A stretch of 64,000 bases of DNA from Desulfobulbaceae bacterium (GTDB lineage: Bacteria; Desulfobacterota; Desulfobulbia; Desulfobulbales; Desulfobulbaceae), in assembly GCA_034007705.1 (NCBI GenBank), contig JAVEQK010000016.1, positions 5,893-69,892 on the forward strand, written 5' to 3'. A model generated the notes under the pieces. It was given only the letters and a program-made list of their open reading frames with translations, was not told the origin of the DNA and searched no databases. Positions 41,210 through 59,735 of the stretch are shown here, piece after piece (position 1 is the first letter of the stretch; each line of letters begins with the position of its first letter). The translations under genes were made by a program, and so were the position numbers.

Positions 41210-41287
41210 ATACAATAGAACAAAGCTGATCAAACCGATTCACCGAACGGCCGGCAAGTGACCCGGCCCTTCACAGGACGCACCCCG

Positions 41288-42054: not shown

Positions 42055-42085
42055 TCGATACCCAACCGAGGAAAGGAGGGAAGCA

Positions 42086-44581
42086 ATGAAACTGAACAGG
42101 CGCGAGTTTATCAAGGCCAATGCCGCCGCAGCCGCCGCCGCGGTCGTCGGCGCCCACCTTCCGGCCGCCCAGGCATACGCAAAGGGACAGGACTCAATCC
42201 GCTGGGACAAGGCCCCCTGCCGCTTCTGCGGCGTCGGCTGCAGCGTCCTGGTCGGCACCAGGGACGGCCGGGTGGTCGCCACCCAGGGCGACCCGGATGC
42301 TCCGGTGAACAGGGGCCTGAACTGCATCAAGGGATACTTCCTGGCCAAGATCATGTACGGCAAGGACCGGGTCACCACCCCCCTGCTGCGCAAAAAAGAC
42401 GGCAAGTATGACAAGAACGGGGAATTCGCCCCGGTCTCCTGGGACGAAGCCTTCACGGTCATGGCGGAGAAATACAAGGAGGCCATCCGCACCGGCGGCC
42501 CCACCACCGTCGGCATGTTCGGCTCCGGCCAGTGGACCGTGTGGGAAGGGTATGCGGCCGCCAAACTGTACAAGGCCGGATTCCGCTCCAACAATATCGA
42601 TCCCAACGCCCGGCACTGCATGGCCTCCGCCGTGGCGGCCTTCATGCGGACCTTCGGCATCGACGAGCCCATGGGCTGCTACGACGACCTCGAGCATGCC
42701 GACGCCTTTGTCCTGTGGGGCGCCAACATGGCCGAAGCCCACCCCATCCTCTGGTCGCGCCTGACCAACCGCCGCCTGACGGCAAACCATGTCAAGGTGG
42801 CCGTGCTCTCCACCTTCACCAACCGCTGTTTCGAACTCGCCGACCTGGGCATGATCTTCAAGCCCCACACCGACCTGGTCCTCCTCAACTACATTGCCAA
42901 TCACATCATCCAGGCGGGCAAGGTCAACGAGGAGTTCGTCAGGCAGCACGTCAACTTCCGCATCGGCAACACCGACATCGGCTACGGCCTGCGCCCCGAC
43001 AATCCGCTGGAAGTCCAGGCCAAGAACGCCAAGACGCCCGACGACCAGGGCGGTTCCCGCGAAGCCGCCTTTGAGGAGTACGCCCGGTTCGTTTCCGAAT
43101 ACACCCTGGACAAGGCCCATGAAATGTCCGGCGTCCCCAAAAAGGACCTGGAAGCCCTGGCCGAAATCTACGCGGACCCGAAAACCAAGGTGGTCTCCTA
43201 CTGGACCATGGGGTTCAACCAGCACACCCGCGGCACCTGGGTCAACAACCTGGTGTACAACGTCCACCTGCTGACCGGCAAGATCTCGGAGCCGGGCAAC
43301 GGACCCTTCTCCCTGACCGGCCAGCCGTCGGCCTGCGGCACGGCCCGCGAGGTGGGCACCTTCGCCCACCGGCTGCCGGCCGACATGGTGGTCAACAACA
43401 AGGAGCACCGGGACAGGACGGAAAAAATCTGGCAGGTGCCCGAAGGGACCATCCCGGACAAGCCGGGCTACCATGCCGTGCTGCAGAACCGGATGCTGAA
43501 GGACGGCAAGCTCAACGTCTACTGGGTCATGTGCAACAACAACATGCAGGCCGGACCCAATGTCAACGGGGAAATGTATCCCGGCTACCGGAATCCGAAA
43601 AACTTCATCATCGTCTCCGACCCTTATCCGACGGTCACCGCCATGGCCGCCGACCTCATCCTGCCGACGGCGATGTGGGTGGAAAAGGAAGGCGCCTACG
43701 GCAACGCCGAGCGCCGTACCCAGTTCTTCCGCCAGCAGATCAAGGCCCCGGGTGAGTCGCGGAGCGATCTCTGGCAGCTGGTGGAATTCTCCAAATACTT
43801 CAAGACGGACGAGGTCTGGCCGGCGGAGCTGCTCGACAGCAACCCCGCCTACAGGGGCAAGACCCTCTTTGACGTGCTCTTTGCCAACGACCGGATCAAC
43901 AAATTCCCGTTGACCGACCTGCAGAAGGGCTACGACAACGATGAATCGACCCATTTCGGCTTCTACCTGCAGAAAGGCATCTACGAGGAATATGCCTCGT
44001 TCGGCCGCGGCAAGGCCCATGACCTTGCCCCCTTTGACATGTACCACCAGTCCCGCGGCCTGCGCTGGCCCATCGTGGACGGCAAGGAAACCCTGTGGCG
44101 GTTCCGGGAAGGATACGACCCCTACGTCAAGCAGGGGGAAGGGATCCGCTTCTACGGTAAACCGGACGGCCGGGCCGTCATTTTCGCGCTGCCCTACGAG
44201 CCGCCGGCCGAATCGCCGGACCGGGAATACGACCTGTGGCTGTGCACCGGCCGGATACTGGAGCACTGGCACTCCGGCTCCATGACCACGAGGGTGCCGG
44301 AGTTGTACCGGGCCGTGCCCGATGCAGTGGTCTTCATGCATCCCGATGACGCGAAAAAGCGGGGCCTGCAGCGCGGCCAGATGGCCAGAATCGCCTCCCG
44401 CCGCGGCGAGATAACCTGCCCGGTGGAAACCATGGGCCGCAACAAAATGCCGGAGGGCATGGTGTTCATCCCCTTCTTTGACGCGGGCCGTCTGGTCAAC
44501 AAGCTGACCCTTGACGCCACCTGCCCGATCTCCAAGGAAACGGACTTCAAAAAATGCGCGGTCAGGGTCAGCAAGGCATGA
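42086..44581 (+). CDS. napA: Periplasmic nitrate reductase catalytic subunit NapA (Mo-bisMGD, 4Fe-4S)
   Basis: Tat signal NRREFIK. 4Fe-4S motif [12 protein letters not shown]...C, and NapA-typical length and motifs throughout. Confidence 0.95.
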
Positions 44582-44624
44582 ACACCGGGCAGGCCGAAAC
44601 CGGAACGTAAAATAACGGGATACA

Positions 44625-45398
44625 GTGAACGGACAACACAATACCAGCGGCGGCGGCCAACCAAAGGAACCGGCCCGGCGGCGGTTTCTCGCCGAAACCC
44701 TGAGCGCCGCCGCCGGCGCCCTGGTGCTGGCGGCAAGCCTCGGGCTGTACCAGCGATCCGCCGGGGCCCTGCCGGCTTACGCCTGCCGGCCGCCGGGGGC
44801 TCTGCCCGAGAAGCAGTTCCTCGGCGCCTGTCTGCGCTGCGGCCAGTGCGTCCGCGGCTGCCCCTATGATGTCCTGCACCTGGCCGCACCGGGGGGGGAA
44901 ATCCCCACCGGCACCCCCTATTTCGTTGCCCGGGAAAACCCCTGCCGGATGTGCGAGGACATCCCCTGCCTGAAAGCCTGCCCGTCCGGCGCCCTGAACA
45001 GGAGCCTGGCGACGGTTTACGAGTCAAGGATGGGACTGGCTGTCCTCCTGGATCACGAAAACTGCCTCAACCATCTCGGACTGCGCTGCGATGTCTGCTA
45101 CCGTGCCTGCCCGCTCATTGACCAGGCCATCACCCTCGAGGTCCAGGTCAACCGGCGCAGCGGCGTCCACACCCTGTTCATCCCCACGGTCCATTCCGAC
45201 CACTGCACCGGCTGCGGCATGTGCGAACACGCCTGCGTGCTGGACAACGCAGCCATCAAGGTGCTGCCCCTCAGCCAGGCCCGGGGCGAACTGGGCAAGC
45301 ACTACCGTCTCGGCTGGGAGGAACAGGAAAAGGCCGGCGGCTCCCTTATCCCCGAACAGTTGAAACTTCCTGTCCGGCGGCCGGAGGAACTGCCATGA
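44625..45398 (+). CDS. napG: NapG ferredoxin-type subunit (periplasmic, Tat signal)
   Basis: RRRFL Tat motif. Four Cys clusters ([46 protein letters not shown]). GTG start. Confidence 0.85.
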
Positions 45399-46237
45399 CG
45401 GCCCGCATACCCGGCAGGGAGGCAATCCGGAAGAAAGGCATGGTGCGGGCCGCCAAGTGGCTGGCGCTCCGGCGCATATCGCAGCTGGCCATTCTCCTGC
45501 TGTTCCTGCTCGGGCCGTTGGCCGGCGTCTGGATCGTCAGGGGCAGCTTCTCCGCCAGCATGACCCTTGATGTTCTGCCCCTCACCGATCCGCTGACCGC
45601 CCTGCAGTCCCTGCTGGCCGGCCATACCCTCGGCGCCACCGCCCTGATCGGCGCTCTGATTGTCGCGGTCTTCTACCTGCTCGTCGGCGGGCGGGCCTAC
45701 TGCAGCTGGGCCTGTCCGGTCAACCTGGTGACCGACGCCGCCGCCTGGCTGGGCCGGCGTCTGGATCTGAAAAAAAGCATCGGCTTCAACAATACGGTCC
45801 GCTACTGGCTGCTCGGCTTCATTCTGCTGCTGGCACCCCTGACCGGCGCCGTTGTCTGGGAATGGGTCAACCCGGTGACCATCCTGCAGCGCGGCCTGCT
45901 GTTCGGCATCGGCCTGGGCTGGGCAGTGGTGGCGGCCATCTTCCTCTTTGACCTGCTGGTCGTCCGCCGCGGCTGGTGCGGACACCTGTGCCCGGTCGGC
46001 GCCCTCTACAGCCTGCCGGGGTTCCTGTCTCTCCTGCGGGTCAGGGCCGCCCGCCGCGAGCAGTGCACGGACTGCATGGACTGCTACAGCGTCTGTCCCG
46101 AACCGCAGGTCATCCGCCCGGCCCTCAAGGGAGAGGCCAGCGGCTCCCCGGTCATATTATCCGGCAACTGCACAAACTGCGGGCGATGCATCGACATCTG
46201 CCCCGAGAATGTCTTTCAATTTTCGCAACGATTCTAA
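45395..46237 (+). CDS. napH: NapH membrane quinol-dehydrogenase subunit
   Basis: 4 TM helices, CSWACP and CGHLCP motifs, and two C-terminal 4Fe-4S motifs ([24 protein letters not shown]). ATGA overlap with napG. Confidence 0.85.
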
Positions 46238-46249
46238 GGAGGGAACGGT

Positions 46250-46672
46250 ATGAAGAAAATAGTATGGGCTCTCTTTCTGCTGCTCTGTGCCGCCAGCTTT
46301 GCCGCCGCCGCTTGGGCTTCAACGGATACAGCCGCCAAGGGAAAAGCGGAACTGCCCTCCGGGACAGCGCCGGCTGCGGGGCTGGACTGGAAGGACGAAC
46401 AATCGGCCATTCCCAGGACCTTTGTCCATCAGCCGCCCCTGATCCCCCATGCGATTCATGAATACGAGACAACGACCTCGCGCAACGACTGCCTCGATTG
46501 TCATCGAACCGGTGATGACGCCCAGGCTGCTCCGCCCCACGAAAGCCATTACCTGGACCGGGACGGGAAAGCCGGGGAAACGGTCGCGGCCCAGTGGTAT
46601 TTCTGCACCCAGTGCCATGTGGGACAGGTCGACGCCAAGCCGCTGATCGAGAACACATTTCAGGGCAAATAA
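46250..46672 (+). CDS. napB: NapB dihaem cytochrome c
   Basis: Signal peptide, two CXXCH motifs (CLDCH, CTQCH) and NapB-like PPLIPH. Confidence 0.85.
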   Translation: MKKIVWALFLLLCAASFAAAAWASTDTAAKGKAELPSGTAPAAGLDWKDEQSAIPRTFVHQPPLIPHAIHEYETTTSRNDCLDCHRTGDDAQAAPPHESHYLDRDGKAGETVAAQWYFCTQCHVGQVDAKPLIENTFQGK

Positions 46673-47930: not shown

Positions 47931-48101
47931 TGGTCCCCTCTCCTCCTGATTCCCGACCCGTTCACCACATCCTGTGCCAGGCAAACGGCAACCGCCTGAT
48001 ATGGTTCAGCAGGAGTTTACCCTCCGATACCCTTCATGTAAATGAACATAACCGGAAACAGCAGCCTGGCGGCAACCTTCTGCGGGACCGGCAGCCTCCG
48101 G

Positions 48102-49079
48102 CTACAGGATTTCCCTGACCGCCGCCACCAGCTTCTCCTCGTCGGGGATATAAAAGCGCTCCAGGGGCGGGCTGGCCGGCACCGGGATATCCGGGCCGGT
48201 CACGCGCCGCAGCGGGGCTTTCAGGGCGGCAAAGGCCTCTTCCATCACCACCGCCGCCACCTCTCCTCCAAAACCCCCGGTGCGCGTGGCCTCATGCAGC
48301 ACGACCAGACGGCCGGTCTTGCGCACCGAGGCCAGGATGGTCTCCTTGTCCAGCGGCGACAGGGTCCGCAGATCGACGATTTCCAGTTCAATGCCCTCCC
48401 CGGCCAGTTGCTCGGCCGCCTTTTCGGCCACCTGCAGCATCTTGGACCAGGTCACAACGGTGACATCGCCGCCTGCCCGCTTGACATCGGCCCTGCCGAT
48501 GGGGATCAGGTACTCCTCCTCCGGCACCGGTCCCGGCGCGAAATACAGCTTCATGTCTTCGATGAAAATCACCGGGTTGGGATCCCGGACGGCAGACTTG
48601 AGAAGTCCCTTGGCATCGGCCGGGGTGGAGGGCATGACCACCTTCAGGCCCGGGCAGTGGGCAACCCAGGCCTCCAGGTTGTGGGAGTGCTGGCACCCGG
48701 CGCCGAAACCGGCGCCGGACTTCATCCGCACCACCAGGGGAAAAGAGGACTTGCCGCCGGACAGGTAGCGCAACTTGGCGGCATGATTGACAATCATGTC
48801 CGAGGCGAGGGTGAAAAAGGGGTTGAACATGATCTCGATCACCGGCTTGAGACCGGCCTCGGCCGCCCCCACCGCCAGACCGGCGATGGCAGCCTCCGAA
48901 ACCGGCGTGTCCCTGACCCGGCCCGGGCCGAACGCCTCCAGAAGCCCGGAGGTGGGGAGCATCGGACTGTCATGAATACTCACACCGACGCCTTCGCCGG
49001 CAAGAAAGACATCGGGGTCCCGGGTCATCTCTTCCCGCAGGGCCTGGTTCAATGCCTGCCCCATCCCTAAATGCTGCAT
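48102..49079 (-). CDS. 2-oxoacid (pyruvate/acetoin) dehydrogenase E1 component, beta subunit
   Basis: MGQALNQALREEM..DPDVFLAGEGVG, and a transketolase-like pyrimidine-binding domain plus C-terminal domain. Confidence 0.85.
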   Translation of the reverse strand: MQHLGMGQALNQALREEMTRDPDVFLAGEGVGVSIHDSPMLPTSGLLEAFGPGRVRDTPVSEAAIAGLAVGAAEAGLKPVIEIMFNPFFTLASDMIVNHAAKLRYLSGGKSSFPLVVRMKSGAGFGAGCQHSHNLEAWVAHCPGLKVVMPSTPADAKGLLKSAVRDPNPVIFIEDMKLYFAPGPVPEEEYLIPIGRADVKRAGGDVTVVTWSKMLQVAEKAAEQLAGEGIELEIVDLRTLSPLDKETILASVRKTGRLVVLHEATRTGGFGGEVAAVVMEEAFAALKAPLRRVTGPDIPVPASPPLERFYIPDEEKLVAAVREIL

Positions 49080-49118
49080 GGTCCTGCTCCTTTCATTCGC
49101 AAATCTTTTCCTCCGCCT

Positions 49119-50081
49119 TCAGGCAAAAACATCCTCCAGGGCCTCATGGGGCTCGGGATAGGGGCTCTCTTCCGCAAAGCGGATGGCCTCCCGAACCGTC
49201 TCACCGATTTCGCTCTCCATTGCCTGCAGTTCGTCCGCGCTGATGAGCCCCTCGGCGAGCATATCGCCGCGCAGTTTCGGGATGGGACACATGGCCTGCC
49301 ATCGCTCGATCTCTTCCCTGGGCTGGTAGAGCTGCAGGTCGCTTTCGCCATGGCCCCGCCAGCGATAGGTCTTGTATTCAATGAGCGTCGGCCCCTTGCC
49401 GGCCAGGGCGCGCTCCCTGGCGTCCACTGCCGACATGTACACCGCCAGGGCGTCATTGCCGTCCACCACCACCCCCGGCATGGCGTAGCCGGCCGCCCGG
49501 TCGGCGATGTTCTCCGCCCTGGTATGCTGTTCATAGCTCTGGGCCCCGGCGTACAGATTGTTTTCGCACACAAAGATCACCGGCAGTTCCCAGACGCTTG
49601 CAAGATTCAAGGCCTCGTGAAAGGAGCCCTCGTTGGCCGCGCCGTCCCCGATAAAACAGACGGTGACGCATTTCTCCCCCCGGTACTGCTGGGCAAAGGC
49701 CCTGCCCACGGCAATGGGCGGCCCCCCTCCGACCACGGTCGTCGTGCACGGGGCGTTGATCTCAGGCACCGCCAGATGCAGCGTGCCGCTTTTGCCTTTA
49801 TTGCAGCCGGTCCGCTTGCCGAAGATTTCCGCCATCAGCGCTTTCGGGTCCGCCCCCTTGGCCAGCAGGTGTGCGTGGCTGCGGTGATTGGTGAAGATCA
49901 CGTCCTCCGGCTGCAGGGCGGCGCACACTCCCGCGCCCACCGCCTCCTGTCCTGTGCACAGGATCATCATGCCGTGGATCTTGCCCTCGATTTTGCACAG
50001 TTCCGTCAGCGCTTCCTCGAACCTGCGGGACAGCAGCAGCGCCCGGAGCATTTCCAGCTTCTTTTCCCTGGATATCTGCAT
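49119..50081 (-). CDS. 2-oxoacid dehydrogenase E1 component, alpha subunit (TPP-binding)
   Basis: TPP motif FIGDGAANEGSFHEALNLASVWELPVIFVCENN. Confidence 0.85.
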   Translation of the reverse strand: MQISREKKLEMLRALLLSRRFEEALTELCKIEGKIHGMMILCTGQEAVGAGVCAALQPEDVIFTNHRSHAHLLAKGADPKALMAEIFGKRTGCNKGKSGTLHLAVPEINAPCTTTVVGGGPPIAVGRAFAQQYRGEKCVTVCFIGDGAANEGSFHEALNLASVWELPVIFVCENNLYAGAQSYEQHTRAENIADRAAGYAMPGVVVDGNDALAVYMSAVDARERALAGKGPTLIEYKTYRWRGHGESDLQLYQPREEIERWQAMCPIPKLRGDMLAEGLISADELQAMESEIGETVREAIRFAEESPYPEPHEALEDVFA

Positions 50082-50391
50082 CGGTCCTCCTTTTTGCCGG
50101 CAACGGACTTTTCAACAATGCCGCCGGGATGTCCGACCAGCTTCCTGGCGGAACACCCTGCTCATAATTCCTATTTTACGGTTTATTGACCTTTCTCCAA
50201 CATGTTTTTTTCAATTATCCTGTTTTTGTCGCGCATCCCCTCCAGTCCCGCGCCGTCGACCTTCCGGCGGGCCGATGATGCCGGAAAAGCATGATCCCCT
50301 GAAAACTGCGGATCGTCACCGGCGGGAAATCAAGTGACTTTTTCCATGGCATTGCGCCGCGGGGCAAAACGATAAAACCGGTAAAAGGAAC

Positions 50392-50421
50392 TTGTTTTTT
50401 TGCGGAAAAATAAAATATAAT
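50392..50421 (+). promoter_or_regulatory. Sigma-70-like promoter TTGTTT-N18-TATAAT in an AT-rich intergenic region
   Basis: Perfect -10 hexamer, about 95 bp upstream of the tetrahaem gene. The -35 is weak. Confidence 0.35.
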
Positions 50422-50515
50422 TTTTACATGAAATAATAATTTCGGATGCGGCCTGTCGAGTACTGAAAAATCCAATTTTACCCCATCCCAAATCAAAACA
50501 ATGCAGGGAGGGCCT

Positions 50516-51073
50516 ATGAAAAAAGTGCTTACTCCTCTTGTCTGGGTAGTGGTGGGTATTGTCGCGGGGTTTCCGCTCTTCAGCCTCACCTATTACACCA
50601 TGGTCCGCACATCCACCCCTCTCTTCTGCGCAACATGTCATGAAATCCAGCCTGCTTACGATGCCTGGAAAACCTCGTCCCATGTGAATAACGGACAGGG
50701 CTTTGTGGCTGACTGCATGGACTGTCATCTGCCGCCGCCGCACGAGACCTTCAATTTTTTTTATGCCAAGACTCTGCACGGTCTCAAGGATATTTACGTT
50801 CATTTTCGGCAAGGGGCGGAGGCCTACGACAGGAGTGTCAACCGGGAGAAAGCCTATGCGTCGATGCACAATTCCCAGTGCCAGAAATGCCACCGCAACA
50901 TTCTTTACATGCCCTACAATCGGGGAGCCATGCTGGCCCACCGGACAGTTATGTACCCGCGGCCCGGCTACGAGAAAAAATGTGTTGACTGCCACCGTAA
51001 TCTGGTCCACGTGGACCGGCCGGCTTACAACTACAGGAAAGACTACGGTTCATACCGGGCGACACGAATATGA
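50516..51073 (+). CDS. NapC/NirT/NrfH-family membrane-anchored tetrahaem cytochrome c (quinol dehydrogenase)
   Basis: N-terminal TM helix plus four CXXCH motifs (CATCH, CMDCH, CQKCH, CVDCH). RBS GGGAGG. The track ORF begins 15 nt upstream. Confidence 0.85.
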   Translation: MKKVLTPLVWVVVGIVAGFPLFSLTYYTMVRTSTPLFCATCHEIQPAYDAWKTSSHVNNGQGFVADCMDCHLPPPHETFNFFYAKTLHGLKDIYVHFRQGAEAYDRSVNREKAYASMHNSQCQKCHRNILYMPYNRGAMLAHRTVMYPRPGYEKKCVDCHRNLVHVDRPAYNYRKDYGSYRATRI

Positions 51074-51130
51074 ATACGGTTAACGGAAGCTCAATTTTGT
51101 CATAAATTGAACTGATGGGGGGAGCAAATT

Positions 51131-52519
51131 ATGAAAAAATCCGGATTTCCATTCTTTCTTTTGAGCGTGATTCCCCTGGCAATATGCTGCGTTGCGGCAG
51201 CACACGCGCAGAATTACCCCAAGGCGAAGGAGTTCAGAATAGAGCGGAGTCTGGCGCCCCAGGCAATAGCATGCCTTGAATGCCACAAGCAGCAGAACCC
51301 GGGCCTGTTTGCGGACTGGTCGCACAGCCGTCATGCCTCAGCCGGCATCACCTGCCTGGACTGCCATCAGGCCGAAGAGCATGATCCGGACGTCAGCGTC
51401 GAACACTACACGCAGTACCAGCGCACCGACTCTCCCTACGGAACCCAGGAATATAAAATTCCGGTTTCCGCCGTGGTGACGCCCAAGGACTGCTCCCGCT
51501 GCCATCCCGATGAGGTCACCCAGTACAGCCGCAGCAAGCATGCCAATACCATGGAAATCATGTGGAAGATCGATCCCTGGCTCAACAATGGCATGAACTC
51601 CGATATCGAGAGGAAAACAGGGTGCTACCACTGCCACGGAACCGTCCTGAAGACCAAGGACGGCAAGCTTGACCCCATGACCTGGCCCAATGTCGGGGTC
51701 GGCCGGGTGAATATGGATGGCAGCCTCGGCAGCTGCACCAGCTGCCATACACGGCACCGCTTCTCCGTCATGGAAGCCAGAAAGCCGGAAGCCTGCGGTC
51801 AATGCCATCTTGGGCCGGACCATCCGCAGATTGAAATCTACATGGAATCCAAGCACGGCGACATCTATACGGCCTTCGGCGATGAGTACAACTGGAACTC
51901 GGCGCCGGGGACCTGGACGCCGGGGGTCGATTTCCGGGGACCGACCTGCGCCTCGTGCCATATGTCGGGGGCCGGTACGGTTCTGACTTCCCACGATGTC
52001 ACCGAGCGGCTTTCCTGGGAGACACAGGCGCCCCTCACTGTCAGGCCTTCCGATTTCGCGGCCTTCCCGGCCAAAACCGATTGGGAGGTGGAACGCGGCA
52101 AAATGAAGGAAATCTGTCTCCAGTGCCACGGCAACGCCTGGGTCGAGGACTTTTATGTGAACTTCGACCAGGCGGTGGAAAATTACAACGAGATATACTT
52201 CAAGCCGGCAAAAGCAATGCTGGACAGCCTTTACGAGAAAGGACTGCTGGACAAGAGCAGGTTCTTCGATGAAGACCTGGAAGTGGAATACTATGAATTA
52301 TGGCATCATGAAGGCCGCCGCGCGCGGATGGGCGTCATGATGATGGCGCCCGATTATGCCTGGTGGCACGGGTTCTACGAATGCAAAAAGCGCTTCAATA
52401 CCTTCATGAAGGAAGCCGAGCACCTGCTGGCCACCGGTGAAAAGGCGCATAGATATGAAGATTACCCCGGAGCGACGGGCGTTACCACGAAACCGGAGGA
52501 AATATTCGGCAATAAATGA
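51131..52519 (+). CDS. Octahaem c-type cytochrome, HAO family, exported (paralogue 2)
   Basis: Eight CXXCH motifs (CLECH, CLDCH, CSRCH, CYHCH, CTSCH, CGQCH, CASCH, CLQCH). Core CHTRHRFS...CGQCHLGPDHPQIEIYMESKHG and C-terminal APDYAWWHGF. Sec signal. Confidence 0.9.
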   Translation: MKKSGFPFFLLSVIPLAICCVAAAHAQNYPKAKEFRIERSLAPQAIACLECHKQQNPGLFADWSHSRHASAGITCLDCHQAEEHDPDVSVEHYTQYQRTDSPYGTQEYKIPVSAVVTPKDCSRCHPDEVTQYSRSKHANTMEIMWKIDPWLNNGMNSDIERKTGCYHCHGTVLKTKDGKLDPMTWPNVGVGRVNMDGSLGSCTSCHTRHRFSVMEARKPEACGQCHLGPDHPQIEIYMESKHGDIYTAFGDEYNWNSAPGTWTPGVDFRGPTCASCHMSGAGTVLTSHDVTERLSWETQAPLTVRPSDFAAFPAKTDWEVERGKMKEICLQCHGNAWVEDFYVNFDQAVENYNEIYFKPAKAMLDSLYEKGLLDKSRFFDEDLEVEYYELWHHEGRRARMGVMMMAPDYAWWHGFYECKKRFNTFMKEAEHLLATGEKAHRYEDYPGATGVTTKPEEIFGNK

Positions 52520-52555
52520 GGCTGCGAATTCCTCCGGGATAAACCTGTTCACAGT

Positions 52556-52589
52556 ACGGAAGGGGACGGAATAAACCGTCCCCTTCCGT
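52556..52589 (+). terminator. Strong hairpin after octahaem 2 (terminator-like)
   Basis: Perfect 14-bp stem ACGGAAGGGGACGG / CCGTCCCCTTCCGT with loop AATAAA. The downstream tract is T-poor (ATCTTCTCC). Confidence 0.55.
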
Positions 52590-52683
52590 ATCTTCTCCTG
52601 TGCGTTGCGGCTTGCGATAAAGGGGTGGACCCTGGAAACCGACCAACATCGGTCCGCCTGCCTTCAGGCTGGGATAGGCATTG

Positions 52684-53505
52684 TTACTTGTCCGCTTCCA
52701 TCAATGAACACCAGGTGTGCCGCTCCAGAAAGCTTCCCGGCACGTTGGCCTCCATTTCGAGAAACATCTCCGTGGGCACGGCGAATGAGAGGTATTCCGA
52801 GCCGAGAAGATTGCGGACATACTTGCGGGCCGAGATGTCCGTCAGCCCCACCACGGCCCTGGGCTGTGCCGACCTGCCCTCCCGATAGGGAAGGATGCCC
52901 ACGGTCTGGCAGCCGGCGGCCCAGGGGATGATCACGTTTTCCATCCCTTCCCTCCCGTAATTGGCAAGGATGACCAGGGCCGACAGCTGGTCCGGATTGG
53001 CAAGGAAAACCACTGTCTCCGGCGTTTCGGCCTCAAGATCAACTTCCCCCAGCGGTTTGAACAGCACATAGGTTGATTTGATTTCCGTTATCGGCAGTTC
53101 TTCCACCCACTGGTTCACCAGCTCCGGTGTTTTCGTGTAGCCTTCCCCTTGCAGAAAATTGTCCATGAACTCTTTGCCTGCGGCCCCTTCAAGGCCCCGG
53201 GCCACCTCTTTTCCCTTTTCCCATCCCTTGTTGCCGGATGACAGAAAGCGGGCAAAGCACTCCACTCCGCCCGGGAAACGGAGATAGGCGTTGCCGAAGC
53301 CAAGCCCGACGCCCCCGCCCCAGCAGCCGTAGGTCTCCGCATCGAAGGCCGCGGTTCTGCCTTTTGCCGCATTGGCAAACATGAACATCACACAGCCCCA
53401 CCTGCCTTTCTTGAACTGCAGGGCATTTTCCGGCTTGTCATCCCCCAGGACAACGGCAACCGGGTTGTACCTGAGCCCGAGGGCTGTGGCGATTCTCGAT
53501 TCCAT
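52684..53505 (-). CDS. DUF169 domain protein
   Basis: The N-terminus ...LGLRYNPVAVVLGDDKP...RWGCVMFMF and the overall length resemble the DUF169 family. Confidence 0.55.
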   Translation of the reverse strand: MESRIATALGLRYNPVAVVLGDDKPENALQFKKGRWGCVMFMFANAAKGRTAAFDAETYGCWGGGVGLGFGNAYLRFPGGVECFARFLSSGNKGWEKGKEVARGLEGAAGKEFMDNFLQGEGYTKTPELVNQWVEELPITEIKSTYVLFKPLGEVDLEAETPETVVFLANPDQLSALVILANYGREGMENVIIPWAAGCQTVGILPYREGRSAQPRAVVGLTDISARKYVRNLLGSEYLSFAVPTEMFLEMEANVPGSFLERHTWCSLMEADK

Positions 53506-53938
53506 AAGCGCACCTCTTTCCGATTTTCAGCTTGGACAACAGCAGTATTTTTGTGCGGGCAAGCGGCAAGCCGTCCGGCCCGGCCGCTCCGAACCAGCCT
53601 CCATGCCCAGGCCGTTCATGCGCCTGCTCCAATGCAGCCGGACAAGCTTTTGATGAAACGTTGTCATGGTTCCCATTGTACGGTTTATGGCCTTTGTTCA
53701 ACAGTTTTTTACGATTTTTCTGTTCTTCCCGCACCCCGGCGGTTCAGTGTCCAAAAAACAGCGGTATTGTTGCGGGCAGCCATGTTCCTGCTTCTTCTCA
53801 TTCCCGGAGAAAAAAAAAGAAGATAATATACCGGGAATTGGTTTATTTATCAGAGAAGATTGGCGCTGTATGCACGGAAATTAGAGCCTGCCGCGGCGCA
53901 GGACCAAATCCGCGGTTCCTAAAACAAGGAGAGGCAAA

Positions 53939-55423
53939 ATGGCGGACTATGATTACGATATCGGCATCATCGGCGGCGGAGCGGCCGGGCTCACTGTCGC
54001 GTCCGGGGCGGCCCAGCTTGGCGCCAAAACCCTGCTGGTCGAAAAGGAAGAGGCCCTGGGCGGCGACTGTCTCCATTACGGCTGCGTGCCGAGCAAAACC
54101 CTGATCAGGACGGCCCATGTCTATCATCTCATGAAAAACGGGCAGAAATTCGGACTGCCGGCCATTTCTCCGCCTGCCGTTGATTTCAGGGAGGTCGCGG
54201 CCCGGATCAGGTCCGTGATCAGTGTTATCCAGCAACACGACTCGGTGGAACGGTTCTGCAAACTCGGGGCAAAGGTCGAGTTCGGAAGCCCCGAATTCCT
54301 TGACGAACATGTGGTCTCCCTCGCCGGCAGGTCCGTTTCCGCCCGCGCCTGGGTGATCGCCACCGGATCGTCGGCGGCGGTGCCGCCCCTCGAAGGTCTC
54401 GACAAAACATCCTATCTGACCAATCGTGACCTCTTCTCCCTTGACAGGCTGCCCGCTTCGATGATCGTGATCGGCGCCGGTCCCATCGCCGCCGAAATGG
54501 CCCAGGCCTTCTGCCGGCTCGGCACCAGGGTTACGGTGATCCAGCGCAGCGGCCAGATCCTCAGCAGGGAAGACAAGGACATGGCGGACCTCGTCCAGCA
54601 GGAGCTGGAAAAAGAAGGCGTGGTCTTTCAGATGAACGCCGCGGTGGTCCGGGTCAACGATTCGGGCCGCGAACGTGAAGTGGTGATAAGAGATGCGGCA
54701 GGCCGGACCCGGACCCTCAGGGCCGAAACCCTGCTGGCGGCGCTTGGCCGTTCGCCCAACATCGAAGGTCTGGGGCTCGAAAAAATCGACATTCCCTTTG
54801 ATCACCGGGGCATCAAGGTCGACAATCGACTCCGGACCAGCCACAAGCATATCTACGCGGCCGGCGATGTGAACGGCGGTCACCAGTTCACGCATGTGGC
54901 CGGCTATGAAGGGGGAGTGGTGTTAAGCAACGCCGTTTTCCATCTGCCCAGGAAAACCGATTACACCTATGTGCCCTGGTGCACCTATACCCATCCCGAA
55001 CTGGCCAGCATCGGCATGAACGAGAAGCGCGCCCGGGAGGCCGGCATCGACTACACTGTCTTCACCGAAGAGTTCAGCGGCAATGACCGGGCCCTGGCCG
55101 AAGGCGAGAGCACCGGCCGGCTCAAACTGCTGCTGGACAAAAAGGAAAAACCCCTGGGCATCCAGATTCTGGGCCCCGAGGCCGGCAATCTCCTGAGCGA
55201 ATGGGTGGCGATTATGAACGGCGGGATCGGGTTGTCGAAAATCGCCTCGGCCATTCACCCCTATCCCACCCTCGGCGAGATCAACAAAAAAGTGGCGGGA
55301 TCGGTTTTTGCCCCGAAGATTTTTTCCAGTACGGTCAAGAAGGGCCTGAAGTTTTTCTTCAGCCTCAAAGGACGCGCCTGTACCTGCGGGGAGGATGCGG
55401 ACTGCGGGGAGGAAGGGAAATGA
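53939..55423 (+). CDS. FAD-dependent pyridine nucleotide-disulfide oxidoreductase (dihydrolipoyl dehydrogenase / mercuric reductase-like) with a Cys-containing C-terminal tail
   Basis: FAD motif [11 protein letters not shown], redox-active disulfide [16 protein letters not shown] motif [10 protein letters not shown], and dimerisation-domain HPYPTLGE. About 45 extra residues follow, ending [16 protein letters not shown]. Confidence 0.8.
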
Positions 55424-55640
55424 AGGAGAAGGAGCGCCTCGAAGCGCAGCGGCACCGAACCAAAGACTGGCGGCTCTGGGGGCCGTATCTGAGCGAGCGG
55501 GCGTGGGGCACGGTTCTGGAGGAGACCACGGCGCCGACGGCGAGGCCTGGGACTATTTTGCCCATGCCCAGGCCCGGTCGCGGCGCTGCGCATCAGACAG
55601 ACCGGACCGGCCTGGCGGCAAATCTCATTAAGCGGCGCTA
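55420..55640 (+). pseudogene. Frameshifted N-terminal remnant of a GH63/MGH1-like glucosidase gene
   Basis: [32 protein letters not shown] continues in another frame as [18 protein letters not shown] and then RTGLAAN. This matches my memory of the conserved N-terminus W(R)[43 protein letters not shown] of proteins about 900 aa long. Nothing follows it here. Confidence 0.45.
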
Positions 55641-55792
55641 TGCATTGGCTGCCGAAAAGAAGGGGAAGCAAAGGTGAGGCGGAAAGGCATCCACCCATTT
55701 CGGCAGTAACAAGGAGGACTCAATTTCATCTTCCGGCTGAAAATGCAGAAGTTCAGGGAACTTCCTGGCAGAGAGACGCCGGGCATTTTCAT

Positions 55793-56206
55793 TCAGCGAT
55801 GGTACTCGCCGGCACGTTCGGGCTGATAAACCACTTCCATAATGCGTACCCGTATCTTGCCGCCGCCCGGCTTCGGCCACTCAATTTCGTCCCCCTGGGA
55901 AAGACCGAGCAGGGCGCTGCCCACCGGCGCCAGTATGGATATTTTTCCTCCGCCGGCATCAACGTCCTGGGGATAGACCAGCGTCAGGCAGAACTCTTCG
56001 TTCGACGGTTGGATTTGAAACCGTATGGTCGAGTTCATTGTCACCACGGTCGGCGGGACATCTTCCGGAGGCAGGATTTTCGCCCGATCCAGTTCTTCCT
56101 CCAACTCCTCCCTGCCCGGGAAGCCGCCATTGGGCAATGCATCCAAAAGCTCCTCCAGCCTTTCCGCATCAATCGAAGAGATGATAATTTCAGGTTTTGT
56201 GTCCAT
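55793..56206 (-). CDS. rnk: Nucleoside diphosphate kinase regulator Rnk (GreA/GreB-family C-terminal domain)
   Basis: 137 aa. An N-terminal helical region is followed by a GreA/B C-terminal-like beta domain (VTMNSTIRF...ISILAPVGSALLGLSQGDEIEW). Confidence 0.7.
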   Translation of the reverse strand: MDTKPEIIISSIDAERLEELLDALPNGGFPGREELEEELDRAKILPPEDVPPTVVTMNSTIRFQIQPSNEEFCLTLVYPQDVDAGGGKISILAPVGSALLGLSQGDEIEWPKPGGGKIRVRIMEVVYQPERAGEYHR

Positions 56207-56392
56207 TCTGAGCTCCCTGGATCAAGGTTCCGTCAAATGCCAACTTTCATTATAAACTGAACCGAGGGGAATTTCATGCTTAATCCCATTTTTTCGGGCC
56301 GCATCCGGCCACGCCGACGATTGGGGCGCAACCTATCGTCAAAAACGCCGCTTCAGGAGGCAGGCCGGCAAGGATAACACCCGCTCTTCCTT

Positions 56393-58630
56393 TCAATTGC
56401 TCAGCACATGGGCATACACCCGCTCAATTCTTCGGCCGAATTCATCTATCCCGAACCGGCCCGCCCTCGATGTCGCCTGACCTGACAGCTTTTGCCGCAA
56501 CGTGTCATCTTCGAGCAAAAGCTGGACCTTCTCCGCCCATGCCGCGGTATGCTGCCCCGTTTTAAATCCGGTTATGCCGTCCGCGACAAAATCATCGATT
56601 CCGCTTGCCCTTATGGCCACTACGGGCATTCCGCTTGCCATCGCTTCGAGTATAACCATCCCCTGGGTTTCCGATGTTGAGGCAAAGACAAAGACATTTC
56701 CCAAACTGTAGTAGACCGGCATGCGTTCGGGCGGTACCGCGCCCGAAAATATCACCAAATCCCGCAAACCGAACTTTTCGGCAAGCTGGCAAAGATGTTC
56801 CCGCTCAGGTCCTTCGCCGATCAGTATAAATTTGAACTTTTTCGAACATTTTTTTGCCAATCCGGAAACGGCTTCAAGCATGAAATCTATGTTTTTCTCT
56901 ACACTCAGCCGGGAAACGGTGAGCAAGACCAATTCATCGCTGCCAATGCCAAGCTCCTCCCGCAGTCTCGACTTCTCCTTTTCAGTGCATGATCCGAACC
57001 TGTCTGTCTCGATGCCGGTGGGAACAACGAACACAGGAATTTTCACCCCGATCATGCGGAGATAGCTCTCAGAAGCCTCGGTCGGGACCACAATGGCATT
57101 ACACCTGTTGCCGAGCCGCCGCACAAGAGCATGCGAAAGAAAATTGCGAAACAGCGCTTTGGGCACCGGCACTGCGTACGAAAAATGTTCCAATCTGGTG
57201 TGGTATGTATAGACAACTGGAACCTTCAAGCGCCGTGCTATCCATAGACCCAGCGTCCCCATCCAGAACGGATGATGAATATGAATCACGTCCGGGGAGA
57301 ATTCGCGTGCCTTCCTGATTGCGGAGACCGAGAATATGTTCGGGACGACAATACCCTTGTCTGCCGCTCGTTGAAAAAAACAGGAAAGTCTGAAAACGTC
57401 ATTCCCATCCCGCGGATGATCATCCCGTTCATATCGGGGCGCGAAAATCACAACCTTGTGCCCCATCTTCCTGAGAACCGAGGACAACCGGTATATTGAA
57501 ACAGGTACGCCGCCTATGAACGGCAGGTAATTGTTGGTGAACATGGCCACGTTGATCGGCCGGCCAAGATCCGGGTCGGACGGCTGGTTGAAATCAGGAT
57601 AATAATCCCGTTCTTTCCACAAGAGTGAATGCAGCCAGTAAGCGCTGACGACAAGACAGCAGACGAAAAGCAGATAATTGAGATACCCGACGTAAAACAG
57701 CGAATGAATAAAGAACCAGACACTTTCAACGGTACGAAAAAGTTTGTACTGTCCGACATTCAGCCTGACAGGTTCAATCGTCACCTGGTCCCGGTTGACA
57801 TGCACTTTCACGAAGTGATAGAAGCTTCGATTGGTGTTGAGTACCAGTCCACCAGCGCCTCCCGTCACGACAAAGGAGGTGTGGTTTGATTTCTGAACTG
57901 AATAAAGTGGCAGATTGGACGAAAAAACCGCCTTTACCCTGGCGTCTGCAAATATCGGCATGAGGAGTTTGCGAAACTCCTCGTCCGCCAGATACTCGTC
58001 ATCGAAGTCGAAAATGCCCTTTTTGTCGACCGGCAGCAGAGGGTGCCCGACGAAAATGAAAATATTGTCATTCGGCCTGACTTCAAGTTCCTCCTCCAGC
58101 CAGCGCGCCTGCCATCGAAAAGACGTCTTTCCGGAGCTGTCGAGGAAAATAAATCTGCTGTTCCCGGCGGAAAACGCGAAAACATACGGCCCATAGTGAT
58201 CATAATACCGGAAGCCGCCAAAAGCGCCGTACTCGTTATCGCCAAAGGTCAACAGATACGGTTTGGCGAAATGTCCCAATGTCCGGTGCAGTGCGCGGTA
58301 TTTGTCTTCCCCGCCGCTGCTGACCGCATTGCCCGCAGAAACGACGAATTCAACCTCGCTCCTGTTCAGCTCGGGAATTATCTTTCGTTCAAAAATCCCC
58401 ACGGAGTTGTTGATGTTGCCCACGACGGCAAAACTGAAAACATCCTGACCGTAAAGCGCCGACTCTATCCGCTCAACTTGATCGGCATGAACCGCGCCGT
58501 AGTCCTGCTCAAAAAAATGAAGATATATCTTATAGAAGACCACCAGAAAGAGAACGAGCACGTTCAGGTAGAACAGTGTCCGCCACCATGACAGCCTAGG
58601 CATTGTTCCGCCCCCGCCGGAAGAATTCAT
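56393..58630 (-). CDS. Membrane fusion protein: calcineurin-like metallophosphoesterase-fold domain (metal ligands substituted), TM segment, GT4-family glycosyltransferase
   Basis: N-terminal TM helix. The MPE-like strand pattern reads VVGNINN / SAGNAVS / FGDNEYG / FVGHPL, where canonical motifs are GDxHG / GDxxDR / GNHE. Central TM helices. GT4 C-terminus with ETQGMVILEAMASGMPVVA (EX7E). An alternative start at Met10 (58603) would remove the 35-nt overlap. Confidence 0.75.
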   Translation of the reverse strand: MNSSGGGGTMPRLSWWRTLFYLNVLVLFLVVFYKIYLHFFEQDYGAVHADQVERIESALYGQDVFSFAVVGNINNSVGIFERKIIPELNRSEVEFVVSAGNAVSSGGEDKYRALHRTLGHFAKPYLLTFGDNEYGAFGGFRYYDHYGPYVFAFSAGNSRFIFLDSSGKTSFRWQARWLEEELEVRPNDNIFIFVGHPLLPVDKKGIFDFDDEYLADEEFRKLLMPIFADARVKAVFSSNLPLYSVQKSNHTSFVVTGGAGGLVLNTNRSFYHFVKVHVNRDQVTIEPVRLNVGQYKLFRTVESVWFFIHSLFYVGYLNYLLFVCCLVVSAYWLHSLLWKERDYYPDFNQPSDPDLGRPINVAMFTNNYLPFIGGVPVSIYRLSSVLRKMGHKVVIFAPRYERDDHPRDGNDVFRLSCFFQRAADKGIVVPNIFSVSAIRKAREFSPDVIHIHHPFWMGTLGLWIARRLKVPVVYTYHTRLEHFSYAVPVPKALFRNFLSHALVRRLGNRCNAIVVPTEASESYLRMIGVKIPVFVVPTGIETDRFGSCTEKEKSRLREELGIGSDELVLLTVSRLSVEKNIDFMLEAVSGLAKKCSKKFKFILIGEGPEREHLCQLAEKFGLRDLVIFSGAVPPERMPVYYSLGNVFVFASTSETQGMVILEAMASGMPVVAIRASGIDDFVADGITGFKTGQHTAAWAEKVQLLLEDDTLRQKLSGQATSRAGRFGIDEFGRRIERVYAHVLSN

Positions 58631-59735
58631 GCAGGGTCACGGGGACACCGATGAGCATGCCCAGGTATACTGTCAGAAACCGCCAAAGCAGCATAATCCC
58701 GACCAGCTCGGAAGCGTTTACCATCGAAGCAAAAAACAAGCCGAAAATCCCCTCGGCAAAACCCGCCCCGCCCGGGGACGGCGCAAAATACATAATGCAT
58801 GTCGATACAGCCAGCAGGCCGGTAGTCTCAAGATAGTCCGCCTGGTATCCTGCGCCCCGGAGGAGCAGGTAGGGAAACGAGAATAACGATAAAAGGAAAA
58901 CCGCCGTGAAAAGAACAGAAAGCATGACATCCCACCTATCTCCACGAGTGTAAATTCTCAGGCAATGCGAGAACCGCACTGCTTCTCTGAGAACGTTCCG
59001 TTTGAGACGGCGCATGCTTCCAATGCTGACAATGTGCATCCCCACCAGAACCTTTGCGGCGGCATCAAGCATCCCCAACAGCCATCGCAGGCGGTAAAGA
59101 ATCATCAAAAAACAGGCGAGATACCCAATAGCAAAAAAGGCCAGAGTCCAGCCCGCACCAGCCATGGCTCCGCCATCCCGGAAATATGGCAGTCCCGCCA
59201 CCAGGAACGGTACCGGAAAGAAAATGAGAACCATCGCAATGAAGGTCCGGATGGTTGTCGCCGCCATTGCTGTGCCTATAGGAACGCCGCGCCGGCGAAG
59301 ATACCAGACTTGGGCGAAACCACCGCCAGTGGCCATGGGGGTGATGTTGGAAAAGAGGATGTTCATGAATGTCAGTTTTCCAAGTGTTCCCGCATCGAGG
59401 CGACGGCCCGCCGCCTTGAGAATGTAGTGCAGGCGCAAAGCGTCACTTGTAAAATACACAACCAGCAGGACGGCCGCTCCGGCAAGGACGGGCCAGGAAA
59501 ACAGTTGCGGATTCAGGGAAAACGACTGTGCGCCGACTTTCTGATAGATGACATAAGGGACGCCGCAACTCAACGCGACAAACAGAAGAACGGAACCAAT
59601 CCACCGGCTAAAGTAAGCTTTGTTCTGTAAACCTTTCGCGTCTGCAAGGCGTTGTTCACTCACCTGCCGGCCTCTCACGTTATAATCGTTGTTACCAGGC
59701 AGGCTGAGCAGCCCACGCAAACAGGCCGGAAGCAC
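58596..59735 (-). CDS. Flippase-like / lysyl-phosphatidylglycerol-synthase TM-region family protein (UPF0104)
   Basis: About 8 TM helices, with TPMATGGGFAQ and FAPSPGGAGFAEG motifs characteristic of the family. Confidence 0.65.
   Translation of the reverse strand: MLPACLRGLLSLPGNNDYNVRGRQVSEQRLADAKGLQNKAYFSRWIGSVLLFVALSCGVPYVIYQKVGAQSFSLNPQLFSWPVLAGAAVLLVVYFTSDALRLHYILKAAGRRLDAGTLGKLTFMNILFSNITPMATGGGFAQVWYLRRRGVPIGTAMAATTIRTFIAMVLIFFPVPFLVAGLPYFRDGGAMAGAGWTLAFFAIGYLACFLMILYRLRWLLGMLDAAAKVLVGMHIVSIGSMRRLKRNVLREAVRFSHCLRIYTRGDRWDVMLSVLFTAVFLLSLFSFPYLLLRGAGYQADYLETTGLLAVSTCIMYFAPSPGGAGFAEGIFGLFFASMVNASELVGIMLLWRFLTVYLGMLIGVPVTLHEFFRRGRNNA

Follow-up and report, generated by a model that had tools for sequence, protein, structure and literature searches.

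Two octahaem cytochromes c of the HAO family are encoded in the same region as a nap operon in a Desulfobulbaceae bacterium (metagenome-assembled genome, GenBank assembly GCA_034007705.1), and the locus raises the question of what reaction the second of them carries out, in which direction, and with what partner. The window analysed here is the whole 64,000-nucleotide stretch from position 5,893 to 69,892 (forward strand) of contig JAVEQK010000016.1, and all coordinates are given in its numbering. In a preliminary description of this DNA, a gene pair at 50516-51073 and 51131-52519 had been read as a NapC/NirT-type tetrahaem cytochrome followed by an HAO-family octahaem, referred to below as octahaem 2 to distinguish it from its paralogue, octahaem 1. 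The open reading frames (ORFs), haem motifs and Pfam profiles all agree with this assignment. We show that the pair almost certainly consists of a membrane tetrahaem and an octahaem of the reductive HAO type, and propose that it probably forms an operon of just these two genes, encoding a periplasmic reductase of nitrogen oxides that depends on quinol.

The gene pair encodes an HAO-family octahaem and a NapC/NirT/NrfH-family tetrahaem

The two ORFs run in the same direction, are separated by 57 nucleotides, and are each preceded by a Shine-Dalgarno sequence. Public gene calls on independent assemblies give identical boundaries for both genes, and the homologue search returned an NCBI protein that is 100% identical to octahaem 2.

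Octahaem 2 starts with a Sec signal peptide, with cleavage predicted after AHA26, and carries CxxCH motifs at C48, C75, C121, C165, C202, C222, C273 and C329. Matches in the PDB were obtained to HAO, HOX, HDH, HAOr and IhOCC (E 5e-45 to 6e-13), the nearest solved relative by sequence being IhOCC (4qo5, E 5e-45), followed by HAOr (6h5l), NeHAO, HOX and HDH. An AlphaFold2 model of medium confidence and devoid of haems (predicted local distance difference test (pLDDT) 72, predicted template modelling score (pTM) 0.66) was then compared with the PDB using Foldseek. The top 11 matches are all members of the HAO family (E 2.7e-16 to 1e-8, template modelling score (TM) 0.46-0.65), with 4qo5 (E 2.7e-16, TM 0.65) ranking above 6h5l, and 6h5l above the HAO, HOX and HDH structures. 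The same search gave no significant match of the model to ONR, NrfA or MccA (for ONR, 3f29 was returned with E 0.05 and TM 0.23-0.34) and no match at all to OTR. No CxxCK motif is present in the octahaem 2 sequence, and an identity as ONR/TvNiR or OTR was ruled out on the absence of both this motif and a significant ONR or OTR fold match. By its eight CxxCH motifs, its PF13447 profile match, its PDB matches and its fold, octahaem 2 is an HAO-family octahaem.

The tetrahaem contains a hydrophobic N-terminal membrane helix (residues 4-26 approximately), with haem motifs at C38, C67, C122 and C156, and it matches PF03264 from position 6 to position 169 of the 174 in the profile. Taken together, the helix, the four CxxCH motifs and the profile match place it in the NapC/NirT/NrfH family. 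Within that family, it scores below every NCBIfam equivalog cut-off tested: 77 bits for NrfH (TIGR03153, cut-off 134), 55 bits for NapC/NirT (TIGR02161, cut-off 311) and 79 bits for TorC (TIGR02162, cut-off 478). Its sole solved relative is NrfH of Desulfovibrio vulgaris (2j7a_C, E 4.5e-6), and its haem 1 motif, CATCHEI, is without the Met that ligates haem 1 in NrfH (CxxCHxM). On family membership, the tetrahaem is predicted to be a menaquinol dehydrogenase and the electron donor to the octahaem.

Octahaem 2 lacks the tyrosine of the oxidative cofactor

The C-terminal region of octahaem 2 was aligned to NeHAO with HMMER, the NeHAO chain being numbered as the mature protein. NeHAO HVNPGGWTY467TEGW aligns with MMAPD-YAWWHGF of octahaem 2, where the key-site region reads M404-M405-A-P-D-Y-A-W411-W412-H413-G and contains no cross-linking Tyr. 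NeHAO and HOX have a His eight residues before the cross-link Tyr, and octahaem 2 has a Met in its place. Counting from that His, octahaem 2 has W at the equivalents of H+7 and H+8 and H at that of H+9, with no Tyr among them wherever the one-residue gap is placed. All 120 retrieved members of the octahaem-2 family contain the motif MMAPDY[AST]WWHGF.

Another part of the HAO core is retained. In HAOs, the distal Asp-His pair has a catalytic role. In octahaem 2, Asp230 and His231 lie within GPDHPQ, beside the sixth haem motif; the sequence CGQCHLGPDHPQIE occurs in 113 of the 120 family members, and the residues D230 and H231 themselves do not vary in either the octahaem-1 or the octahaem-2 family.

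These features correspond to those of known reductive enzymes. As quoted in PMC8940962 from Haase et al. 2017, the criterion for an epsilon-Hao is a Trp replacing the cross-link Tyr together with a Met eight residues earlier, and octahaem 2 fits this signature with M404 and W412. It also agrees with the rule given in PMC12758564, according to which reductive HAOs have a His at the key site and oxidative ones a Tyr. The Tyr-less HAOr of Kuenenia reduces nitrite to nitric oxide (NO) and does not oxidise hydroxylamine (PMC8042395), while four epsilon-Hao enzymes, in the part of Haase 2017 quoted in PMC8042395, reduce nitrite and hydroxylamine with negligible oxidation of hydroxylamine. Because the Tyr that makes haem 4 an oxidative P460 cofactor is missing, octahaem 2 is predicted to run in the reductive direction.

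The opposite direction was nevertheless considered, i.e. that octahaem 2 oxidises hydroxylamine or hydrazine and that the electrons flow via the tetrahaem to the quinone pool. The gene pairing does resemble the HAO-cM552 module of ammonia oxidisers (PMC3701875), and both proteins belong to the same superfamilies as the components of that module. Yet there is no Tyr at or beside the cross-link position in any of the 120 family members, and none of the Tyr-less HAOs tested so far can sustain oxidation. The host lineage consists of anaerobes not known to possess ammonia monooxygenase, and we regard an oxidative octahaem 2 as extremely improbable.

The pair is a widespread two-gene cassette with frequent linkage to hcp

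The preliminary description had called octahaem 2 divergent. It belongs instead to a large family: more than 6,000 homologues were found, of which the best 120 are 71-100% identical to it, and in a scan using one genome per species at least 557 species genomes encode a relative, the best 80 being 70-97% identical. These best 80, which were used for all neighbourhood counts below, are almost all from Desulfobacterota. Carriers in culture include Desulfatibacillum alkenivorans (two copies), Desulfobacter curvatus and Desulfobacter vibrioformis, and Thermodesulforhabdus norvegica is among the named homologues. Three relatives that are 45-58% identical to octahaem 2, P0242 and P0243 (728-734 residues) and P0257 (727 residues), are fusion proteins with an extra N-terminal region of about 300 residues and a ninth CxxCH motif.

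A tetrahaem gene (53-91% identity) lies directly upstream of the octahaem gene in 78 of the 80 loci, and the other two loci are at contig ends. Since the tetrahaem is immediately upstream in 78 of 80 cases, tetrahaem and octahaem form a fixed two-gene cassette, common and highly conserved among sulfate-reducer relatives. The wider context of this cassette varies; in a 922-kb contig, for example, it is surrounded by unrelated genes. A conserved linkage to nap was rejected, as napG, napH and napB do not occur beside the pair in the 80 loci, and so was DUF169 as a functional partner, since its gene adjoins the pair only in the near-identical locus L001.

To characterise this context, the ORF closest to the pair was taken on either side in every locus and these neighbours were clustered. 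The largest cluster is Hcp (PF03063, E about 1e-176), and the second largest consists of sensor kinases and sigma-54 activators. Hcp is a hydroxylamine- and NO-reducing enzyme. In 15 of the 80 loci, an hcp gene lies no more than 6 kb from the pair, usually directly downstream and in both orientations, and these copies share 43-93% identity among themselves. With 1-3 hcp copies per 4-Mb genome, less than one such locus is expected by chance (binomial p < 1e-14), although the 80 loci are phylogenetically related and the statistic therefore overstates their independence. The order tetrahaem-octahaem-hcp recurs in L010, L026, L059, L068, L074, L076 and L080, and in L062 and L063, both from D. alkenivorans DSM 16219, in which the two copies of the three-gene array are on different contigs. 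Hcp has been proposed as the partner of Hao in Nautilia's reverse-HURM pathway (PMC3701875) and in Deferribacter as well (PMC6896113).

These neighbourhoods bear directly on whether the module might reduce a sulfur compound (sulfite, tetrathionate, thiosulfate or polysulfide) and serve the sulfur metabolism of Desulfobacterota. In favour of such a role, the family is found mostly in Desulfobacterota, many of which reduce sulfate, and HAO-family proteins overall, known from 65 phyla, are most frequent in that phylum (PMC9213671). The same study hypothesises reduction of sulfur species for one clade, citing MccA and OTR as precedents, and hao-like genes increase with depth in sulfidic mat layers (PMC8940962). 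Against this, the commonest neighbour of the cassette is hcp, and no sulfur-metabolism gene recurs among the neighbours in the 80 loci, a contrast that favours nitrogen-oxide over sulfur chemistry. Moreover, the Asp-His pair and the CHTRH core held in common with the HAOs that convert nitrogen oxides are invariant, the fold search provides no link to MccA or to OTR/ONR, and the nearest relatives to have been tested reduce nitrite and hydroxylamine. A sulfur substrate is thus considered unlikely.

A quinol-fed reductase of nitrogen oxides is the probable function

We infer the following electron path, catalytic haem, substrate and physiological role for the pair. NapC, NrfH and CymA take electrons from menaquinol. 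The tetrahaem, anchored by its single N-terminal helix, would do the same and would pass the electrons to the soluble, Sec-exported octahaem 2. There, seven haems would serve electron transfer and one, haem 4 (C165YHCH), would be catalytic, with Asp230-His231 predicted on its distal side. Lacking the P460-forming Tyr, octahaem 2 would operate in the reductive direction. Its likely substrates are nitrite and hydroxylamine, and probably NO as well, with ammonium or partly hydroxylamine as the product. Nitrite could be supplied by NapAB, encoded 4 kb upstream, in which case the module would either complete nitrate ammonification or detoxify nitrite and hydroxylamine.

Nitrogen-oxide reduction is on balance the function that we favour for the pair. 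Several observations weigh against it. Firstly, the substrate is extrapolated from enzymes that are 34% identical to octahaem 2 or more distant, the tetrahaem is distant from all characterised NapC/NrfH equivalogs, and the octahaem 2 model is of only medium confidence (pLDDT 72) and has no haems. Secondly, linkage to nap is not conserved, the flanks of the 80 loci containing none of the genes that lie upstream of the pair in the window (napG, napH and napB among them); the window itself has no hcp gene, and the kinship of the loci tempers the hcp statistic, as stated above. Finally, the family occurs most often in sulfate reducers for which nitrate respiration is not known, sulfur substrates are proposed in PMC9213671 for other HAO-family proteins of Desulfobacterota, and the physiological role of epsilon-Hao is itself called unclear in that work.

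If the pair does reduce nitrogen oxides, its role in the cell could be of two kinds. It could be the respiratory ammonifying nitrite reductase of this organism, which we think rather doubtful. Alternatively, it could mainly detoxify nitrite, hydroxylamine and NO, ammonification being left to octahaem 1 or to an NrfA encoded elsewhere. This second role is a sub-case of nitrogen-oxide reduction, with the same chemistry, so that its likelihood overlaps with that of the general proposal and is not to be added to it; we consider it a serious possibility, though one short of an even chance. It would be in keeping with the occurrence of the cassette in many sulfate reducers without linked nap, with its linkage to hcp, a nitrosative-stress gene, and with the fact that the pair has its own putative promoter and lies outside the nap operon, which is preceded by a sigma-54 promoter-like site. 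There is also a precedent in NrfA of D. vulgaris, which serves detoxification and not respiration (PMC12285233). However, a quinol-dehydrogenase partner and the proximity of nap (4 kb) would suit respiration equally well, and cable-bacterium relatives highly express an HAO-family cytochrome encoded beside nap during dissimilatory nitrate reduction to ammonium.

The pair has its own putative promoter and a probable terminator

The region upstream of the pair is a divergent intergenic region of 434 nucleotides. An AT-rich stretch before the pair had been noted in the preliminary description and is indeed there: the guanine-cytosine (GC) content of the last 124 nucleotides (50392-50515) is 34.7%, compared to 60.3% for the whole window. 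Manual reading of this leader reveals a perfect candidate -10 element, TATAAT (50416-50421), and 18 nucleotides before it a weak -35 element, TTGTTT (50392-50397), both of which are kept in the nearest relative, L001. A strict scan of the leader for the sigma-70 consensus gave no promoter match, and a scan for sigma-54 gave no site. The Shine-Dalgarno sequence of the tetrahaem gene, GGGAGGG, is at 50505-50511.

Downstream, 36 nucleotides past the octahaem 2 stop codon, starts a hairpin (arms 52555-52569 and 52576-52590) located between the pair and the convergent DUF169 gene and conserved in L001. It is real, as had been claimed, but its stem is a perfect 15 base pairs and not 14. The fold energy is -46 kcal/mol over 101 nucleotides (z -5.2), and none of 200 shuffled sequences folds equally well. 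The terminator scan did not call this hairpin because its U-run is weak: there is no clean U-run, only the weak U-tract UAUCUUCUCCU. We conclude that the hairpin is probably the transcription terminator of the pair. No Rfam match was found in or near the pair, and the only one within the window is a tRNA gene (11280-11353, minus strand).

Composition argues against a foreign origin of the octahaem

The GC content is 53.2% for the tetrahaem gene, 56.9% for octahaem 2 and 60.4% for octahaem 1; among the nap genes it is 60-67%, and among the ABC genes 64-66%. The pair is therefore lower in GC than octahaem 1, as first reported, but the figures given for it at the time (47-53%) were underestimates. 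GC and GC at third codon positions (GC3) were next expressed as z scores relative to 45 window genes. Values for octahaem 2 are -1.1 and -0.6, and for the tetrahaem -2.1 (the second-lowest GC of the 45 genes) and -1.8. Synonymous codon usage was compared with the pooled usage of the window by simulation for each gene's length and amino-acid content, and 42 genes were ranked. Octahaem 2 is ordinary (z 0.8, rank 29 of 42), as is octahaem 1 (z -0.2), while the tetrahaem, a short gene, deviates mildly (z 2.9). Much larger deviations are seen for napA (z 12.6, GC3 0.87), for a glycosyltransferase gene at 56393-58630 (z 18.9) and for an LPG-synthase-like gene (z 10.6).

Composition had been taken as a hint that the two octahaems have separate origins. 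This hint does not survive proper computation, the codon usage of octahaem 2 being unremarkable and only the tetrahaem being mildly off. The absence of a compositional difference on proper computation had been named beforehand as speaking against that part of the proposal, and the codon usage of octahaem 2 gives this outcome.

Comparison with L001, which is 90% identical at the nucleotide level, shows where the local gene order breaks. By blastn, L001 is colinear with the window only at 50374-53494 and 55792-56299. Colinearity starts at the leader of the pair, at 50374, and the genes upstream of this point are unrelated in L001. About 2.3 kb (53495-55791), containing the oxidoreductase gene at 53939-55423, is absent from L001 (its positions 8130-8326). 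The cassette together with the DUF169 gene is flanked by two indel or rearrangement boundaries relative to L001, one of which is the local boundary at the leader. There is no integrase gene, transposase gene or repeat on either side of the pair.

These data allow us to assess whether the lower GC of the pair could reflect its recent acquisition as a foreign island. The tetrahaem values (GC z -2.1, codon z 2.9) point that way, as do the exact start of L001 colinearity at 50374, with completely different genes upstream, and the unrelated contexts of the cassette in other genomes. But octahaem 2 is ordinary in both codon usage and GC3, the true outliers are napA and the glycosyltransferase/LPG-synthase block, no mobile element or repeat adjoins the pair, and the tRNA gene at 11280 is far off. 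In addition, the downstream DUF169 gene occurs in L001 too, which allows the breakpoint to be read as an ordinary rearrangement, and close homologues include other Desulfobulbaceae proteins (80% identity). Recent acquisition is accordingly judged improbable. The block at 56393-59735, which encodes a GT4 glycosyltransferase fusion (745 residues) and the LPG-synthase-like membrane protein and has the lowest GC of the window (51-55%), makes a stronger case for foreign DNA than does the cytochrome pair.

Octahaem 1 is an ancient paralogue linked to a probable haem-c sensor kinase and a sigma-54 regulator

Octahaem 1 and octahaem 2 are paralogues with shared core motifs, CHTRHxF and CxQCHxGxDHPQxE...SKHG, and of different lengths (432 and 462 residues), as the preliminary description had recognised; they are 25% identical (E 6e-33). 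It had also allowed for their being recent duplicates within this genome, which they are not. Because they are 25% identical to each other while each has orthologues 70-85% identical in many other genomes, we conclude from the sequences that they are ancient paralogues.

The best solved relatives of octahaem 1 are the anammox HOX structures (6t5e and 4n4j, E about 1e-21). Its key-site region, FHVNPDYAYWYGW (near residues 390-402), is invariant in 119 of 120 relatives. Octahaem 1 keeps the His eight residues before the NeHAO/HOX cross-link Tyr and has a Tyr at H+7 and another at H+9, on either side of a Trp at H+8. In the HMMER alignments, the H+7 Tyr aligns with Tyr467 of NeHAO and the H+9 Tyr with the HOX Tyr that precedes a conserved Gly. 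A check for the C-terminal cross-linking Tyr, suggested at the outset, thus gives different answers for the two proteins: octahaem 2 and the 120 members of its family have none, and octahaem 1 has Tyr residues flanking the position. Octahaem 1 may on this basis carry a P460-type Tyr cross-link, in an anaerobe. An independent His-to-Tyr transition within Desulfobacterota has been described (PMC12758564).

In three genomes, octahaem-1 orthologues (71-73% identity) adjoin the pair (L003 7217-8470, L012 1-1077 and L015 4031-5209), which suggests that both octahaem types act in one process. In the window, octahaem 1 is preceded by genes for a sensor kinase and a sigma-54-dependent regulator. The Tll0287-like periplasmic domain of the kinase sits between two membrane helices and bears one CLGCH haem-c motif, so that the protein is probably a haem-c sensor. 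Orthologues of this kinase (56% identity) and of the regulator (61%) are encoded divergently upstream of the pair in L002, a Desulfobulbaceae metagenome-assembled genome whose octahaem 2 orthologue is 80% identical, and the leader of the pair in L002 contains a sigma-54-like site, TGGCCCACAACTTGCT, and palindromic repeats. Kinases of a similar kind lie beside the pair in L009, L042 and L057. In view of these adjacencies in L002, L009, L042 and L057, and of those in L003, L012 and L015, the two octahaem types and the kinase/sigma-54 regulator are repeatedly linked.

It is conceivable, though improbable and put forward as a speculation, that the two HAO-family enzymes differ in catalytic direction, octahaem 2 being a quinol-fed reductase and octahaem 1 possibly of the P460 type, possibly under shared haem-c kinase/sigma-54 control, and that together they cycle hydroxylamine or NO. 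As one possibility, one octahaem would then make hydroxylamine or NO from nitrite and the other would convert it further, in a two-octahaem nitrogen-oxide pathway not yet described in Desulfobulbaceae.

The nap operon and the surroundings of the pair

The nap operon (41258-46672, plus strand) has the order napF-napD-napA-napG-napH-napB and contains no napC. A sigma-54 promoter-like site, TGGCACTGTTGTTGCT, is found at 41194-41209, 64 nucleotides before napF, and octahaem 1 lies 13.7 kb upstream of napF. The pair had been placed next to Nap. While nap is indeed within the window, this wording is loose, as three genes on the opposite strand separate the operon from the pair. These upstream neighbours, all on the minus strand, encode the E1 alpha and E1 beta subunits of a 2-oxoacid dehydrogenase and an AI-2E transporter; no ABC genes are immediately upstream. 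Downstream of the pair are the convergent DUF169 gene and the gene for a pyridine-nucleotide disulfide oxidoreductase (53939-55423). Plus-strand ORFs at 48042-50189 and 27688-28962 are shadows of minus-strand genes (GC at first codon positions higher than GC3), the real genes being those for E1 beta and E1 alpha in the first case and one for a Na/Ca exchanger (27793-28770) in the second. Coordinates are collected in Table 1.

Table 1. Positions of the gene pair and of related features in the window
Feature	Position	Strand	Remarks
Sigma-54 promoter-like site	23062-23077	+	TGGCACATGTCTTGCT
Sensor kinase	23315-24898	+	probable haem-c sensor
Sigma-54-dependent NtrC-type response regulator	24902-26245	+	directly upstream of octahaem 1
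Octahaem 1 (paralogue)	26295-27593	+	432 residues; different HAO subfamily
napF	41258-41827	+	
napD	about 41824-42054	+	
napA	42086-44581	+	
napG	44625-45398	+	
napH	to 46237	+	
napB	46250-46672	+	
E1 beta, 2-oxoacid dehydrogenase	48102-49079	-	
E1 alpha, 2-oxoacid dehydrogenase	49119-50081	-	
AT-rich leader / putative promoter of the pair	50374-50515	+	GC content, conserved -10/-35, L001 blastn
Tetrahaem cytochrome c	50516-51073	+	185 residues; 4 CxxCH; PF03264, E 3.2e-37
Octahaem 2	51131-52519	+	462 residues; 8 CxxCH; PF13447, E 3e-30
Hairpin, probable transcription terminator	52555-52590	+	perfect 15-bp GC-rich stem; loop AATAAA

Significance

HAO-family genes of the octahaem-2 type are among the most abundant "nitrogen-cycle" genes in anoxic sediments and mats (PMC8940962). 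The octahaem-2 family is present in hundreds of Desulfobacterota species, and the literature on it is split between nitrogen-oxide and sulfur substrates. Comparison across genomes offers three handles on this question, namely the near-invariant operon, the linkage to hcp and the recurrent linkage to the haem-c kinase and sigma-54 regulator, and carriers are available in culture (Desulfatibacillum, Desulfobacter and Thermodesulforhabdus). For annotation, such genes should neither be named "hydroxylamine dehydrogenase" nor be counted as markers of nitrification.

Comparison with known systems

The pair is a known type of module, of a family known from genome surveys, and is no new kind of system. 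With NrfHA of D. vulgaris (2j7a), it shares the arrangement of a membrane tetrahaem of the NapC/NirT/NrfH family encoded beside a periplasmic multihaem nitrite reductase. NrfA and HAO are evolutionarily related. The catalytic subunit here, however, is an HAO-type octahaem, with eight CxxCH motifs and no CxxCK, for which the NrfA fold match is not significant, and the tetrahaem reaches 77 bits where the NrfH cut-off is 134 and lacks the haem-1 Met.

The oxidative enzymes HAO, HOX and HDH (NeHAO, 1fgj/4fas; HOX, 4n4j) have the same fold, haem arrangement and CHTRH and GxDHP core, and ammonia-oxidiser HAO likewise has a NapC-family partner, cM552. They differ in the cross-link Tyr (Tyr467/Tyr451), which is absent in octahaem 2, and in the His eight residues before it, which is Met here. 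HAOr of Kuenenia stuttgartiensis (Kustc0458/0457, 6h5l) is closer in this respect: it is Tyr-less, with a GPDHP Asp-His motif and a key-site Trp (SWWWG). Unlike our pair, it has a soluble dihaem partner, yields NO and forms a 60-haem heterododecamer, and it resembles octahaem 2 in sequence only at about E 4e-23. Among solved structures, IhOCC of Ignicoccus hospitalis (Igni_0955, 4qo5; Parey et al. 2016) comes nearest in sequence as well as in fold. It is also a Tyr-less HAO-type octahaem, but it is archaeal and membrane-associated, has long insertions (521 residues), aligns weakly in the C-terminal region, and has the key site QDWTTFKRG, without WWHG.

In its signature residues, octahaem 2 resembles epsilon-Hao. 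For comparison, we used the Hao homologue of Nautilia profundicola (ACM93230.1, P0479), found in a 50%-identity cluster that also contains Caminibacter proteins; it is most probably NAMH_1280, since PMC3701875 names no other hao gene in that genome. This homologue shares 34% identity with octahaem 2 (E 1e-79) and only 22% with octahaem 1, and its key-site sequence, MGSPDYAHWHG, occupies the position of the octahaem 2 motif. When 50%-identity representatives were searched exhaustively, a single cluster took in the whole octahaem-2 family, and about 38 other clusters are closer to octahaem 2 than the Nautilia cluster. A neighbour-joining tree of 76 sequences, built without bootstrap and without oxidative HAO (Klotz clade III) sequences, groups octahaem 2 in a tight clade of Desulfobacterota that has other sisters; Nautilia and Caminibacter fall in a clade next to it.

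Common to epsilon-Hao and octahaem 2 are the eight CxxCH motifs, the missing Tyr, the Met eight residues before its position, the key-site Trp, the WHG motif, a partner of the NapC/NrfH tetrahaem type proposed to oxidise quinol, and an association with Nap and Hcp. Octahaem 2 differs in being about 50 residues shorter (462 versus 510), in having the tetrahaem almost always in its operon, and in its hosts, which are Desulfobacterota. The gene proposed to encode the tetrahaem partner in N. profundicola, cycB (NAMH_0559), is located with nap and not next to hao NAMH_1280 (PMC3701875). The match to the epsilonproteobacterial architecture put forward in the preliminary description therefore holds for the reductive, Tyr-less type and for the tetrahaem partner, while strict equivalence fails on the separation of cycB from hao. 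Judged on sequence, octahaem 2 shares the signature residues of epsilon-Hao but represents a sister lineage, outside the Campylobacterota clade.

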